IMG/VR virus record: IMGVR_UViG_2875455138_000005
Coordinates: 62,001-87,243 of that record
Length of the DNA stretch: 25,243 nt
From: an uncultured virus (IMG/VR IMGVR_UViG_2875455138_000005)
Lineage: Duplodnaviria > Heunggongvirae > Uroviricota > Caudoviricetes
Reading direction: 5' to 3' (one strand)
Both the position numbers and the translations under genes were made by a program. Numbering within the stretch: the stretch's first letter is position 1; each line of letters begins with the position of its first letter. The notes below the pieces were generated by a model. It did not search any database, was not told the DNA's origin, and saw only the letters and a list, made by a program, of their open reading frames with translations. This document shows positions 17,121 to 22,014 of this stretch, piece after piece.

Positions 17121-17216
17121 TTAGCGTCCAAGAAGGGTGAAAATAGGTTTTCTGAATGCGAAAACAAATGCCGCTGTAAGAGCAATAGCTACTTTATCTT
17201 CGGTTGATATTTTCAT
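17121..17216 (-). CDS. 31-aa hydrophobic peptide (type I toxin-like)
   Basis: GAAAGGAGGT RBS; MKISTEDKVAIALTAAFVFAFRKPIFTLLGR; GC-rich hairpin downstream. Confidence 0.7.
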   Translation of the reverse strand: MKISTEDKVAIALTAAFVFAFRKPIFTLLGR

Positions 17217-17264
17217 GAATCGAACCTCCTTTCGGTAACTTAGGTATATTGTACCACATAAATA

Positions 17265-17278
17265 CGAATGTGTGTTCG
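17265..17278. promoter_or_regulatory. LexA (DinR)-like SOS box over the -35 region of a minus-strand extended -10 promoter
   Basis: CGAATGTGTGTTCG, 1 mismatch to CGAAC-RNRY-GTTCG; minus-strand TG-N-TACAAT at 17248-17256. Confidence 0.65.
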
Positions 17279-17310
17279 TTTTTTTAAAAAATTTCGGGAG
17301 GGATTGCGGA

Positions 17311-17622
17311 ATGGCTGAAACGAAAGAGTATGTACGGATTAAGAAGGCGCCCTGTAGATCGATATGGTATGCAGATAAGATTGGGAGCATTTTTCCTTCG
17401 TTAGGGACTTGGGAGAACGCGTATAAGGTCGATAGTCCGGACAGGGCGTTGTATATTCGAAAAGAAGACGCCGAACTCATCGTCACTGAAAAGCGACCAG
17501 CACCGTACGAATTAAACGATTCAATAGCAGCGCTGAAGCTCGGCGTACCTGAACACCTTTATCATCACGTTTGGTGCCTTATTTACGAAATCGAAGCATT
17601 ACAAGAGGAGGCCACAAGATGA
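17311..17622 (+). CDS. Phage hypothetical protein
   Basis: GGGAGGG RBS fits ATG at 17311. Confidence 0.7.
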   Translation: MAETKEYVRIKKAPCRSIWYADKIGSIFPSLGTWENAYKVDSPDRALYIRKEDAELIVTEKRPAPYELNDSIAALKLGVPEHLYHHVWCLIYEIEALQEEATR

Positions 17623-17960
17623 TCGATAAATTGACGAAAGATCAACTCGAAGTAATCCGAAAGCGTTCGGAGAAGGCTACGGAAGGCCCGTGGCGAATCG
17701 GGAAGCAATCACCAAACGGATTAAATAATATCGGAACAATTGGCGGATTACTGACTGCACAAACAACGGATGAAGAGGACGCAAATTTCATCGCAAACGC
17801 CCGCCAAGATATTCCGTCGCTACTCGATCACATTACTTTTCTAAACGAAGTAATATCGAGCTGCCGATGCGCTGAGTGTGGCGATGAATTGGGGGAAGAT
17901 TGGGCAACTAACAACGGAGTAGCGTTTTGCAATTACTGTGCTGGACTTAATTCTTTATGA
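17619..17960 (+). CDS. Ead/Ea22-like phage protein with C-terminal zinc ribbon
   Basis: EKATEGPW..DANFIANARQDIPSLLD motif; CAEC...CNYC; AGGAGG RBS. Confidence 0.75.
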   Translation: MIDKLTKDQLEVIRKRSEKATEGPWRIGKQSPNGLNNIGTIGGLLTAQTTDEEDANFIANARQDIPSLLDHITFLNEVISSCRCAECGDELGEDWATNNGVAFCNYCAGLNSL

Positions 17961-17989
17961 AATCTGTATTTTAAAGAGAAGGTGATGCA

Positions 17990-18112
17990 GTGAAAGAGTC
18001 GTTGAAGAATGATTTTCAAGAGTTTGTGAGTATTGCAAAAAGCTTTCTTGCTGTTTCTGGAGCAGTCTTTTGGTTATTGATAATTTCACTTGTTTTTGCT
18101 GGAGGCTATTAA
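17990..18112 (+). CDS. 40-aa single-TM peptide (not in ORF track)
   Basis: AAGGTGA RBS, GTG; MKESLKNDFQEFVSIAKSFLAVSGAVFWLLIISLVFAGGY. Confidence 0.65.
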   Translation: MKESLKNDFQEFVSIAKSFLAVSGAVFWLLIISLVFAGGY

Positions 18113-18113
18113 A

Positions 18114-18302
18114 ATGAATCAATCATATAAATTTAGTCTAGAAAAATTACCAATAGAAAGCTTAGAGAACCTGAAGACAGACATACAAAATAGAATTAAT
18201 GATGGCTTGCGTACTGATAACAACGTATACATAAAAGACCAAAGAAGAAAACTTCAAATCTTTTTAGACGAGCTGGTTAGACGAAGTACACTTGTTCACT
18301 AA
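18114..18302 (+). CDS. Phage hypothetical protein (62 aa)
   Basis: GGAGG RBS fits ATG at 18114. Confidence 0.75.
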   Translation: MNQSYKFSLEKLPIESLENLKTDIQNRINDGLRTDNNVYIKDQRRKLQIFLDELVRRSTLVH

Positions 18303-18316
18303 AGGAGGTGAATACA

Positions 18317-18355
18317 ATGCCAGAAGTACTTTACGGATTTGGAAGAGGAGCGTAA
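18317..18355 (+). CDS. 12-aa micro-ORF MPEVLYGFGRGA ending in an arbitrium-like hexapeptide
   Basis: AAAGGAGGTGA RBS at 18301-18311, ATG, TAA, then a hairpin. Confidence 0.75.
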   Translation: MPEVLYGFGRGA

Positions 18356-18377
18356 AAAAGAGGGGATTAATCCCCTC
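18354..18377 (-). terminator. Terminator of sspC, possibly bidirectional
   Basis: GAGGGGA-TTAA-TCCCCTC with A6 on the left (U6 on the minus strand). Confidence 0.8.
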
Positions 18378-18382
18378 ATAAA

Positions 18383-18595
18383 TTAATGAAATTGACCATT
18401 CATGCTTTGCTGAGCCATGCGAACCAAACGTTTTGTGATTTCTCCACCTACTGAGCCGTTTGCTCGGCTTGTTGTGTCTGCTCCCAGTTGAACACCAAAC
18501 TCAGAAGCAATTTCATACTTCATTTGTTCAAGGGCACCAGCAGCTTGAGGCACAAGTAATTCATTGCTGTTGTTTGATCTGTTTTGTTGAGCCAT
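18383..18595 (-). CDS. sspC: Alpha/beta-type small acid-soluble spore protein
   Basis: [37 protein letters not shown] signature; AGGAG RBS. Confidence 0.95.
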
Positions 18596-18639
18596 ATGAT
18601 CATCTCCTAAAGTAGTATGTAAACAAGTTTGTTCAATTG

Positions 18640-18668
18640 TAGTGTGTGGAGATGATTTGAAAATATAC
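18640..18668 (-). promoter_or_regulatory. SigG-type promoter of sspC
   Basis: Minus strand GTATA-N17-CACACTA. Confidence 0.6.
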
Positions 18669-18696
18669 ACATTAAATTTGAAGTGAGGTGATTTAA

Positions 18697-18720
18697 ATGT
18701 CGATTGGTCATGGAGCATAA
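18697..18720 (+). CDS. 7-aa micro-ORF MSIGHGA (arbitrium-like hexapeptide after Met removal)
   Basis: GAGGTGA RBS at 18685-18691, 5-nt spacer, ATG TCG ATT GGT CAT GGA GCA TAA. Confidence 0.7.
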
Positions 18721-18754
18721 GTTAACACGTACTTAAACAAAGAAGGGGGATAAA

Positions 18755-19582
18755 ATGAAAATCGATTATGTTTCAGATCTGCATATTAATCACTGGATAC
18801 CTTGGAACAATAACCAAATCAAATGGGAAAGGCGAACAAGGGAGATTATTAGAAGGTTGATATCTAATGGAAATGGAGAGGTATTAATCATTGCCGGTGA
18901 CTTTACTGAGTGGAATCAACAGACACTATGGGTACTTGATGAAGTAGCAAAGCAGTATGAAAAGGTCTACTTCACATATGGTAATCATGATCTTTATCTA
19001 CTCAGTAAAAATCAGCAACGAAAATATTCCGATTCTTTGGGAAGGGTGCATGATTTAATTCAGAAGGCAGCAGACATCAATAATGTCACTCCATTAATAA
19101 AGTCTACGGATACATACAAAGGAAAAGCCTTTGCTGGAGATGTCATGTGGTATCTTCCAAAAGGAAATGAAGGATGGGATTTCTTCAAAGGTGTCTCCAA
19201 TGATTCAAACTATATCAGCCTAAATGGATACAACAAAGAAGATGGGGTAAGAGCAATGTGGAAAGAATCAATGGATTGGTATGATACTCTTGAAAACTCT
19301 CACATTGATGTATTTGTCTCACATGTCCCACCTGTTCACAATCCCTGTTCTCCGTTTGAGCCTAACAGCTGCTATATGGTCGATTTGCCATTCATTAATG
19401 CCGAACATTGGATTTGTGGACACGATCATTTACAAGCTGAGTTTTATATAGAAGGAACGAGCTTTCACATGAACTGTATTGGATATCCGTATGACTATGA
19501 TATGTACCCAAGAGTAAATGAGATACCAGGTAATCAAGTTGATACGTATAAAACGTTTGAGCTGAAGACATTTGAAATTTGA
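18755..19582 (+). CDS. yotB: Calcineurin-like metallophosphoesterase
   Basis: SDLH, AGD, GNHD, SHVPP, GHDH motifs; next to sspC as in SPbeta. Confidence 0.9.
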
Positions 19583-21304: not shown

Positions 21305-21982
21305 ATGGACGATTATCTACAAATACTTAATGAGGTTAAACCGATAGAAATGCTATTAACAACAAAAGAATTCACTGTTCAGATGATAAGTGTTTACTAC
21401 GAAGTTCCTGAAGATACAATTAAATCAGTACTTAAAAGGAACATGAAACTCCTTAAGCAATATGCAGAAATAAGAACAGTTGAAATGAAAATATTGAAAC
21501 ATGAATCAGCAATTTTTAAATCAGCCAGATTTAAAAAAGTTAGAAAGTTATCGTTAGTCAATATATACGGTTTCCTTAGGATAGGCTTACTTTTGCACAA
21601 CAGTATCATAGCGAGGGAATTTCAGAAAAATGTTAGGCATCTTGACCTGCCGGAAAGGCTAACAGATATCGTGATCGGGAGTGCCGAATATAAAGCAAAA
21701 GAAAAGAAGCTGGGTTTATTTATCAGCACGGCTTTTAGTGGCATTTTCAGTATCGAGCAGCAAGTAAAATGTGGAGCTTATTTTATTGATTATGTAATAG
21801 ATAAAAAGGTTGCTATCGAATGTGATGAACACGGGCATAAATATTACTCAAAACATAAGGAATTGGAAAGAGAAGAATACATAAAAAGAAATGGATATAA
21901 ACTAATTAGATTCAATCCAGATAGTGAGGAATCAATTTTTAAACTGATCAACAGAGTATTTATGGAATGTCAAACTGCATAA
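21305..21982 (+). CDS. Protein with putative N-terminal DNA-binding domain and C-terminal DUF559/Vsr-like PD-(D/E)xK nuclease
   Basis: IEQQVKCGAYFIDY..VAIECDEHGH..REEYIKRNGYKLIRFNPD. Confidence 0.75.
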   Translation: MDDYLQILNEVKPIEMLLTTKEFTVQMISVYYEVPEDTIKSVLKRNMKLLKQYAEIRTVEMKILKHESAIFKSARFKKVRKLSLVNIYGFLRIGLLLHNSIIAREFQKNVRHLDLPERLTDIVIGSAEYKAKEKKLGLFISTAFSGIFSIEQQVKCGAYFIDYVIDKKVAIECDEHGHKYYSKHKELEREEYIKRNGYKLIRFNPDSEESIFKLINRVFMECQTA

Positions 21983-22014
21983 AATCGGTCTTTTAAAAAG
22001 AAAGGAATGATTTT

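Follow-up and report, generated by a model that had tools for sequence, protein, structure and literature searches.

Leaderless mini-genes flanking sspC in SPbeta-like phages encode the arbitrium signals of other phages and may serve as forged messages to rivals

Arbitrium is a model of virus-to-virus communication, and secreted look-alike signals have already been shown to sway other phages. Among clade-2 arbitrium systems, GFGRGA is the commonest proposed mature peptide, with 56 of 281 systems, and SIGHGA accounts for 9 (PMC13220667 Table S2). GFGRGA has served as a representative clade-2 peptide (PMC13220667) and defines a family that PMC6458997 counts among the six major ones of arbitrium peptides, and the SIGHGA propeptides, ending in ...GDVQVASIGHGA, come from B. 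subtilis, B. velezensis, and B. amyloliquefaciens (PMC13220667 Table S1). Here, we describe two very short open reading frames (ORFs) that end in exactly these two peptides and lie on either side of the spore protein gene sspC in an IMG/VR provirus of the SPbeta group (IMGVR_UViG_2875455138_000005; 87,243 bp). The stretch analyzed, called the window, comprises bases 62001-87243 of that provirus (25,243 nt), and positions are those of the window unless the provirus is named. The two mini-ORFs and their Shine-Dalgarno (SD) sequences are as follows (aa, amino acids):

18301-18310, + strand: SD sequence AAAGGAGGTG of mini-ORF1, followed by a 6-nt spacer
ATG at 18317, TAA at 18353-18355, + strand: mini-ORF1 (A-type), MPEVLYGFGRGA, 12 aa, composed of MPEVLY and GFGRGA
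18685-18690, + strand: SD sequence GAGGTG of mini-ORF2, followed by a 6-nt spacer
ATG at 18697, TAA at 18718-18720, + strand: mini-ORF2 (B-type), MSIGHGA, 7 aa, composed of Met and SIGHGA

The two mini-ORFs are real accessory mini-genes of SPbeta-like phages, with neither a secretion leader nor a cognate receptor. We judge it probable, with ample room for error, that they are orphan, leaderless "forged" arbitrium signals, which would be made in the cytoplasm and aimed at the AimR receptors of rival phages. A preliminary description of this DNA had reported two micro-ORFs flanking sspC, each behind an SD sequence and ending in GFGRGA or SIGHGA, and coordinates and translation confirm this; the 5-nt spacers that it gave are actually 6 nt, counted from the end of GGTG, with the start of mini-ORF1 at 18317. 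What it had called arbitrium-like hexapeptides are indeed exact, real signals of other arbitrium systems in the published clade-2 list. It was also right that the window holds no aimR, as the sole AimR match of the provirus is at provirus bases 26585-27505 (G000:C1:26585-27505), outside of the window and 53 kb from the mini-ORFs.

Both GFGRGA and SIGHGA are exact entries among the 26 proposed mature clade-2 peptides of PMC13220667 (Table S2), and the same holds across the locus in related phages, where all six peptide types found at the two sites flanking sspC are listed proposed mature clade-2 signals. For the other types, the 281 clade-2 systems include 42 with SASRGA, 13 with NPGRGA, and 5 with TIGRGG; for propeptides ending in ...FKVATIGRG, Table S1 lists TIGRG as the active peptide, and Table S2 prints ATIGRG (3) (PMC13220667). 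The peptides come in two forms: GFGRGA, SASRGA, and NPGRGA end ORFs of 12 codons, and SIGHGA, TIGRGG, and TIGRG directly follow the initiator Met.

A chance origin of the mini-ORFs was rejected on the basis of a census of short ORFs, a generic scan of IMG/VR, and a peptide search of six genomes. The whole provirus contains, on both strands together, 1,619 ATG-initiated ORFs of 5-25 codons, and only two of these, mini-ORF1 and mini-ORF2, end in [RH]G[AG]. Both also belong to the 12 short ORFs whose SD match is 6 nt or longer, and the 9-nt match of mini-ORF1, which is kept in relatives, is the top one of the entire set. The generic pattern (GGAGG, 4-9 nt, ATG, eight codons, [RS]-G-A, TAA) returned 19 loci from IMG/VR, 14 of them at the sspC site (10 GFGRGA, 3 SASRGA, and 1 NPGRGA); the remaining five are unrelated, and one of those has an internal stop. 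Across six complete phage genomes, any of the 26 listed peptides occurs immediately before a stop codon 18 times, comprising 6 AimPs of the phages themselves, 11 mini-ORFs flanking sspC (one with ATC for ATG), and a single out-of-frame chance match inside a gene.

We gathered 65 loci around SspC relatives in IMG/VR, blind to the mini-ORFs, and counted as SPbeta-like the 34 with at least 81% SspC identity. At least one intact mini-ORF with a known signal is present in 22 of these 34, and the 31 loci with more distant SspC proteins yielded none. The A-type ORFs all have 12 codons and are placed after the upstream unit and before the sspC terminator. MPVV[LF]YGFGRGA is intact in 8/34 SPbeta-like loci as well as in the isolated phages Goe14 and SPbetaL1; MVQTL[HY]SASRGA lies in tandem directly 5' of the GFGRGA site in 3/34 loci and in SPbetaL1; and MGQVLHNPGRGA, which ends in NPGRGA, came up once in the generic IMG/VR scan, immediately 5' of a GFGRGA copy. 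Ahead of the signal, these 12-mers have M-x-x-[VT]-[LF]-[YH] in common. The B-type ORFs, on the opposite side of sspC, consist of Met and the signal, with MSIGHGA in 11/34 loci, MTIGRGG in 2/34, and MTIGRG in 4/34 and in SPbetaL5, and in all three alleles the start codon stands exactly at the proposed maturation site. An SD-like sequence (GAGGTG, GAGGGG, GGGGTG, or GAGGGTG, with GAGGGTA in L094) precedes 17 of the 18 B-type homologs, L093 having none, and its distance to the ATG is 6 nt in 16 of them and 4 nt in L064. The homologs of mini-ORF2 precede at least three other downstream sequences in relatives, with the ribosome-binding site (RBS) retained, and the metallophosphoesterase gene that follows mini-ORF2 in the window is no fixed partner of it. 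The conservation on which the preliminary description had staked its proposal is present: RBS, frame, and stop are kept in many relatives, and the sister alleles SASRGA, NPGRGA, TIGRGG, and TIGRG exist.

These peptides are foreign to the phages that encode them. The AimP of the provirus itself, which follows its AimR, is 46 aa long with a hydrophobic leader and the C-terminal signal SIIRGA, and a comparison with this hexapeptide, which the preliminary description had suggested, shows that GFGRGA and SIGHGA both differ from it. An intact GFGRGA mini-ORF is present in 14 phages, none of which has GFGRGA as its own signal; the own signals of these phages are SIIRGA, SAIRGA, GMPRGA, SASRGA, SPSRGA, GVVRGA, or GIVRGA. 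More broadly, 0/37 SPbeta-like phages with a readable AimP use GFGRGA, SIGHGA, NPGRGA, or TIGRG(G), and SASRGA is the own signal of 8/37, none of which bears a SASRGA mini-ORF. AimR was matched in 36 of 41 related records, at one locus each; in G018 and SPbetaL5, it is broken in two. A second receptor acting in cis with the mini-ORFs was considered, and none was found in the provirus or the related records.

The two records with a split receptor merit a separate remark. In SPbetaL5 (OQ921345.1, L150/L151) and G018 (L135/L146), the two pieces of aimR carry internal stops, and the adjoining aimP (SAIRGA) is intact. Both of these phages bear an MTIGRG mini-ORF.

Real systems that use the two peptides do exist in IMG/VR. 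GFGRGA AimPs make up 12 of 55 pattern-matched loci and lie in provirus records of 28-95 kb, with AimR adjoining in 4 of the 5 records examined (28-46 kb); the real SIGHGA AimPs number two, in proviruses of 26 and 34 kb. None of the real GFGRGA and SIGHGA systems found there is within an SPbeta-like phage. The preliminary description had supposed that at least one peptide is aimed at another SPbeta-like phage; that the signals are foreign stands, and an SPbeta-like owner is not borne out, the real systems found in IMG/VR being in other proviruses. Judging by contig-name prefixes, 4 of the 12 real-GFGRGA proviruses have a common source with an SPbeta-like provirus, and 2 of those 4 SPbeta-like proviruses bear an intact GFGRGA mini-ORF. 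The shared prefixes indicate that GFGRGA phages and SPbeta-like phages meet in one host, and the best reading is that the targets share the same Bacillus subtilis-group hosts as the SPbeta-like carriers of the mini-genes.

We also considered that the mini-ORFs might be 3' fragments of aimP genes, and we rejected this, as neither the flanks nor the codon families used for Ser and Arg agree with those of real aimP. The Ser of SIGHGA is encoded by AGC in real aimP and by TCG, TCA, or TCT in the mini-ORFs; the first Ser of SASRGA by TCA or TCT in real aimP and AGT in the mini-ORF; and the Arg of GFGRGA by CGT in real aimP and AGA in the mini-ORF. In the pattern search for real SIGHGA aimP genes, a TCN Ser codon gave no matches and AGY gave two. 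The 3' flanks of mini-ORFs and real aimP have nothing in common, and the residues ahead of the signal are MPEVLY, MVQTLH, or MGQVLH in the mini-ORFs versus ..FHVA, ..ITVA, or ..VQVA in real AimPs. This comparison points to a separate small gene family with a retargeted signal-coding half. MSIGHGA occurs as three synonymous DNA alleles (TCG/TCA/TCT, with GGT/GGC also varying), and YGFGRGA has synonymous alleles too; the SIGHGA and TIGRGG alleles are four substitutions apart, which turn one real signal into another. An argument that all changes are synonymous within a class was dropped as circular, the classes being defined by the peptide.

The following series of events could connect these mini-genes to a rival, with each step, from translation, removal of Met, and cleavage to AimR binding, timing of expression, and benefit to the phage, being a prediction from sequence. 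Both mini-ORFs would be translated from + strand transcripts of a yos/yot-type gene block. Methionine aminopeptidase removes the initiator Met before a small second residue, e.g., Ser or Thr, and MSIGHGA without its initiator Met would match SIGHGA residue for residue and would already be in the compartment of AimR, the cytoplasm. The product of mini-ORF1 would be a mini-precursor, from which a cut after Leu-Tyr/His (Tyr6) would free GFGRGA, either inside the cell or after lysis by subtilisin-type proteases; the conservation of Leu-Tyr/His suggests a defined protease site. The preliminary description had both products as direct AimR ligands, and for mini-ORF1 this does not hold. AimR grips the N-terminal amine of the peptide via Q299/E300 and the C-terminal carboxylate via R228 (PMC6458997), and because it needs the free N-terminal amine of hexapeptide residue 1, the 12-mer would be no ligand as made and would have to be cleaved first. 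The freed peptides would then bind AimR of a rival phage, co-resident or co-infecting, whose own signal is GFGRGA or SIGHGA. With its aimX switched off, that rival would stay in lysogeny or be pushed into it during replication of the SPbeta-like phage. Neighboring cells might also import these peptides via Opp once the producer has lysed.

Published work makes such an outcome plausible. Mitomycin C fails to induce a resident arbitrium prophage when the cognate peptide is added (PMC13220667), the emitter gains when a rival is driven to lysogeny, and arbitrium phages are often polylysogenic (both bioRxiv 10.1101/2025.10.13.681967); for these reasons, we read the mini-genes as forged rival signals. 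We are evenly divided over a bolder version, in which the sspC locus would be a fast-changing arsenal: signals finished in the cytoplasm would bypass secretion, maturation, and Opp uptake and saturate the AimR of the rival, with alleles that track the rivals. Allele switching from SIGHGA to TIGRGG, and among GFGRGA, SASRGA, and NPGRGA, would then be an arms race waged with counterfeit quorum signals.

Several observations weigh against the reading as forged signals. The 12-mer needs a cleavage, for which the protease is putative. A 1-nt deletion in phi3T and two IMG/VR relatives turns mini-ORF1 into MPVVLMDLEEEHKKRGE, one copy has ATC for ATG, two copies have ATA with a decayed tail, a B-type copy is frameshifted in L076, and 12/34 SPbeta-like loci are without an intact copy. 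Broken and absent copies mark the mini-genes as accessory and strain variable, and the mini-genes are dispensable. The alleles MTGFRRGA, MYGFRKGA, FGFGKGV, and FG[LF]GKGV are absent from the list of known signals. In 185,579 species-representative genomes, the 7-codon B-type pattern had no matches, and the LYGFGRGA-TAA pattern had one, a chance match in Streptomyces. The variation is of a coding type, but the tests of codon-position bias are weak: third codon positions hold 6 of the 9 variable sites among ungapped mini-ORF1 alleles (P = 0.04) and 3 of 6 in mini-ORF2 (P = 0.32). Mini-ORF carriers do share a source with matching rivals, but without enrichment and in numbers too small for a test, and L222 and L223, the real SIGHGA proviruses, share a source prefix with the SPbeta-like L023 (G035) and G036, which are without MSIGHGA. 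No sigma-A-type promoter was found beside either mini-ORF on the + strand within 17200-19200, except for one at 17429. Finally, RNA libraries from two runs yielded contigs across the locus of a relative whose allele is intact, one of 11 kb at depth 64 and one of 2.3 kb at depth 41, and such contigs are uninformative on strand and level and possibly reflect DNA carry-over; of the four runs, X1 and X5 each produced one long contig (~94% identity), X9 gave partial cover, and X23 gave no reads.

Some of the diverged copies deserve description in their own right. The frameshifted GFGRGA mini-ORF of phi3T (L001, KY030782.1) lies at ~1730-1790 of the locus, and that phage is without a B-type ORF; Goe14 and SPbetaL1, which are intact, and phi3T, which is frameshifted, are natural wild-type/mutant pairs among isolated phages. 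At the position of mini-ORF1, L065, L069, L070, and L072 have ...EEMIWVFG[LF]GKGV*, fused on as the end of another upstream gene; L068 reads GTG-FGFGKGV after TAG, and L091 reads GTG-YGFRKGA. The diverged homologs of mini-ORF1 may be decayed copies or may be signals of uncatalogued systems. The SPbeta-like G035 and G036 mentioned above bear GFGRGA mini-ORFs, and G036 has NPGRGA too.

It is possible that the same peptides reach the same targets by acting outside of the producer, with release at lysis or through a non-Sec exporter like those of other short RRNPP pheromones, trimming of the 12-mers by extracellular proteases, and entry into neighboring cells via Opp, although we think this unlikely. 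The conserved Leu-Tyr/His before the 12-codon signals resembles a processing site and would be pointless without processing, and the Rgg/SHP and ComR/ComS systems also have short leaderless precursors. Arbitrium peptides are acted upon by extracellular factors when Bacillus is grown to high density (PMC8612742), and externally added peptides, cognate or non-cognate, alter lysogeny and induction (PMC13220667; bioRxiv 10.1101/2025.10.13.681967). The B-type ORFs, however, encode Met plus the whole mature peptide, so that an extracellular step would be superfluous for a product already beside AimR; moreover, there is no exporter among the genes linked to the locus, and a signal freed only at lysis would be late and diluted.

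It is also conceivable, and in our view improbable, that the mini-ORFs are remnants of recombination with arbitrium modules or of gene starts, and as such are neutral passengers with no effect. The broken starts, frameshifts, decayed tails, and empty loci listed above would all be expected of debris, as would the weak codon-position statistics, and the RBS module of mini-ORF2 drives a normal gene (MDFSSVKEGD...) in L065, L068, L075, L089, and Goe14, which could mark a recombination scar. Debris would not, however, be expected to yield six peptide types of which every one is a listed real signal, nor a start codon at the exact maturation site in three B-type alleles. The preference of the generic pattern for the sspC locus, the RBS kept in nearly all B-type copies, and the synonymous alleles of MSIGHGA and YGFGRGA also count against it, and the codon families and flanks, unlike those of real aimP, argue for convergence on the peptide and not for copying.

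The surroundings of the mini-ORFs bear on a last alternative, and the neighboring features are given here:

18114..18302, + strand: 62-aa gene, function unassigned, with no Pfam or PHROG match
18360-18377, - strand: GC-rich hairpin GAGGGGATTAATCCCCTC, intrinsic terminator of sspC, 4 nt past mini-ORF1
18383-18595, - strand: sspC, alpha/beta-type small acid-soluble spore protein, 70 aa (PF00269, E 7e-23; phrog_10367)
18755-19582, + strand: metallophosphoesterase gene (YotB-like), 275 aa, with its own RBS (PF00149, E 1e-17; phrog_1649)

sspC is convergent with mini-ORF1 and divergent from mini-ORF2. The TAA of the 62-aa gene (18300-18302) overlaps the SD sequence of mini-ORF1, which is therefore the final cistron of a + strand unit, and the hairpin that follows has its T-run on the - strand and no U-tract on the + strand. 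In phi3T, Goe14, and many relatives from IMG/VR, the 62-aa gene likewise stands 5' of the mini-ORF; over the locus, the nearest isolated relatives are phi3T-type phages, Goe14, SPbetaL1, and SPbetaL5. The upstream in-frame stops lie 24 codons (mini-ORF1) and 7 codons (mini-ORF2) before the stop of each ORF, and 34 nt separate mini-ORF2 from the RBS of the metallophosphoesterase gene. On RNA folding, only the sspC terminator is significant (surroundings of mini-ORF2, z = +1.15), and an explanation of the locus as an RNA element was rejected on this basis. Identity as a regulatory leader or upstream ORF was likewise set aside, given the hairpin behind mini-ORF1, the varying genes downstream of mini-ORF2, and the lack of significant RNA structure.

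More improbable still is a role within the phage itself, be it as a second signal that reaches its own AimR from inside the cell and counts multiplicity or time (the preliminary description had offered internal feedback or a multiplicity counter as an alternative) or as regulatory ORFs tuning yotB and sspC: mini-ORF2 does lie close ahead of the RBS of the next gene, and phi3T AimR does respond to the non-cognate SIIRGA, SASRGA, SPSRGA, and GVVRGA (bioRxiv 10.1101/2025.10.13.681967), but synthetic GFGRGA left the induction of SPbeta, phi3T, and Goe11 unreduced (PMC13220667), of 30 peptides tested on phi3T without aimP only four non-cognate ones were active, with GFGRGA and SIGHGA not named among them (bioRxiv 10.1101/2025.10.13.681967), mini-ORF1 leads nothing as a final cistron ahead of a hairpin, mini-ORF2 stands before different genes in different phages, there is no RNA structure beyond the terminator, and a regulatory role leaves the exact matches to foreign signals unexplained.

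Three further features of the region may be noted. An ORF of 40 aa at 17990-18112 (+ strand), with a GTG start, an AAGGTG RBS, and a hydrophobic C-terminal stretch (FLAVSGAVFWLLIISLVFAGGY), has no Pfam or PHROG family match and probably encodes a small membrane protein; its stop falls within an alternative, TTG-started reading of the 62-aa gene that follows. The motif AAATCTGTATTTTAAAGAGAA occurs at 259-279, 17960-17980, and 21982-22002 of the window (+ strand, with at most 3 mismatches), where shuffling expects none, and each copy is directly 5' of the RBS of some gene. The motif is also found at the sspC terminator junction in L081, L085, L087, and L004, which are relatives without mini-ORF1, and it may be a module-boundary mark or a regulatory site. 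As for promoters, the yosX promoter of SPbeta is repressed by MrpR (PMC10516654), and a yosX homolog lies 5' of the locus in phi3T, Goe14, SPbetaL1, and SPbetaL5; tblastn found no yosX homolog in the window, and a link to this promoter was not used as evidence.

The preliminary description, which is partly supported as a whole, had known of no account of such genes, and in the literature that we searched, which excludes subscription journals and closed preprint supplements, no leaderless or orphan arbitrium signal genes are described. The strings YGFGRGA, HSASRGA, MSIGHGA, MTIGRG, and HNPGRGA do not occur in that literature, and GFGRGA and SIGHGA occur in it only as real AimPs, in two of the papers cited here. 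The frameshift in phi3T and the lack of copies in species-representative genomes may explain why the mini-genes were overlooked earlier. If the reading as forged signals is true, dedicated genes for exact signals make the manipulation of rivals an evolved weapon and no side effect, and provide a rare case of a quorum signal made in the cytoplasm directly in its active form. It would also add a class of unannotated genes of 7-12 codons to phage genomes and help account for the rapid diversification of arbitrium signals. The presence or absence of a start codon is, in addition, a simple genetic handle on prophage competition in polylysogens.

Taken together, the mini-ORFs resemble clade-2 aimP genes in their signals and differ from them in almost everything else. 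The last 5-6 residues of clade-2 AimP propeptides are identical to the mini-ORF signals, and the mini-ORFs share the C-terminal form of AimP, mostly xxxRGA but also xxxHGA or xxxRGG. Real AimPs, however, are 37-48 aa long from the ATG with a hydrophobic N terminus, and the mini-ORFs have 12 or 7 codons and no signal peptide. An aimP lies directly 3' of its cognate aimR, whereas the only aimR of the provirus, 53 kb away, is paired with SIIRGA. Real AimPs have Val-Ala before the signal and the 12-mers have Tyr or His, and homology to aimP beyond the mature peptide is lacking in the residues ahead of the signal, the codons, and the flanks alike.

In size, the closest parallels are SHP (Rgg) and ComS (ComR) of streptococci, which are very short precursors without a Sec signal and with an active C-terminal part. 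Mini-ORF1 and its SASRGA and NPGRGA paralogs are of this kind, with 12 codons and the signal as the last six residues. The SHP and ComS genes adjoin their own receptor, and they need a dedicated exporter (an ABC transporter) and a membrane protease. The neighbors of the mini-ORFs, in contrast, include no receptor or exporter, and the signal belongs to another element.

In ecological logic, there are two precedents. Signals of Phaeobacter prophages activate the lysogeny program of a competitor, but that system is based on LuxI/LuxR and acyl-homoserine lactone, and it is the full system of the emitter itself, not a ribosomal copy of the peptide of a rival (PMC13345283). In arbitrium cross-talk, the peptide of one phage acts on the AimR of another (Gallego-del-Sol et al., Cell 2026, PMC13220667; Manley et al., bioRxiv 10.1101/2025.10.13.681967), such that lysogeny of the receiver is favored or its induction blocked and the emitter benefits, and the same logic is what we propose for the mini-ORFs. 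Cross-talk, as described in those two studies, stems from the own secreted signal of the emitter resembling that of the receiver, whereas the mini-ORFs encode an orphan, leaderless, and exact foreign signal.

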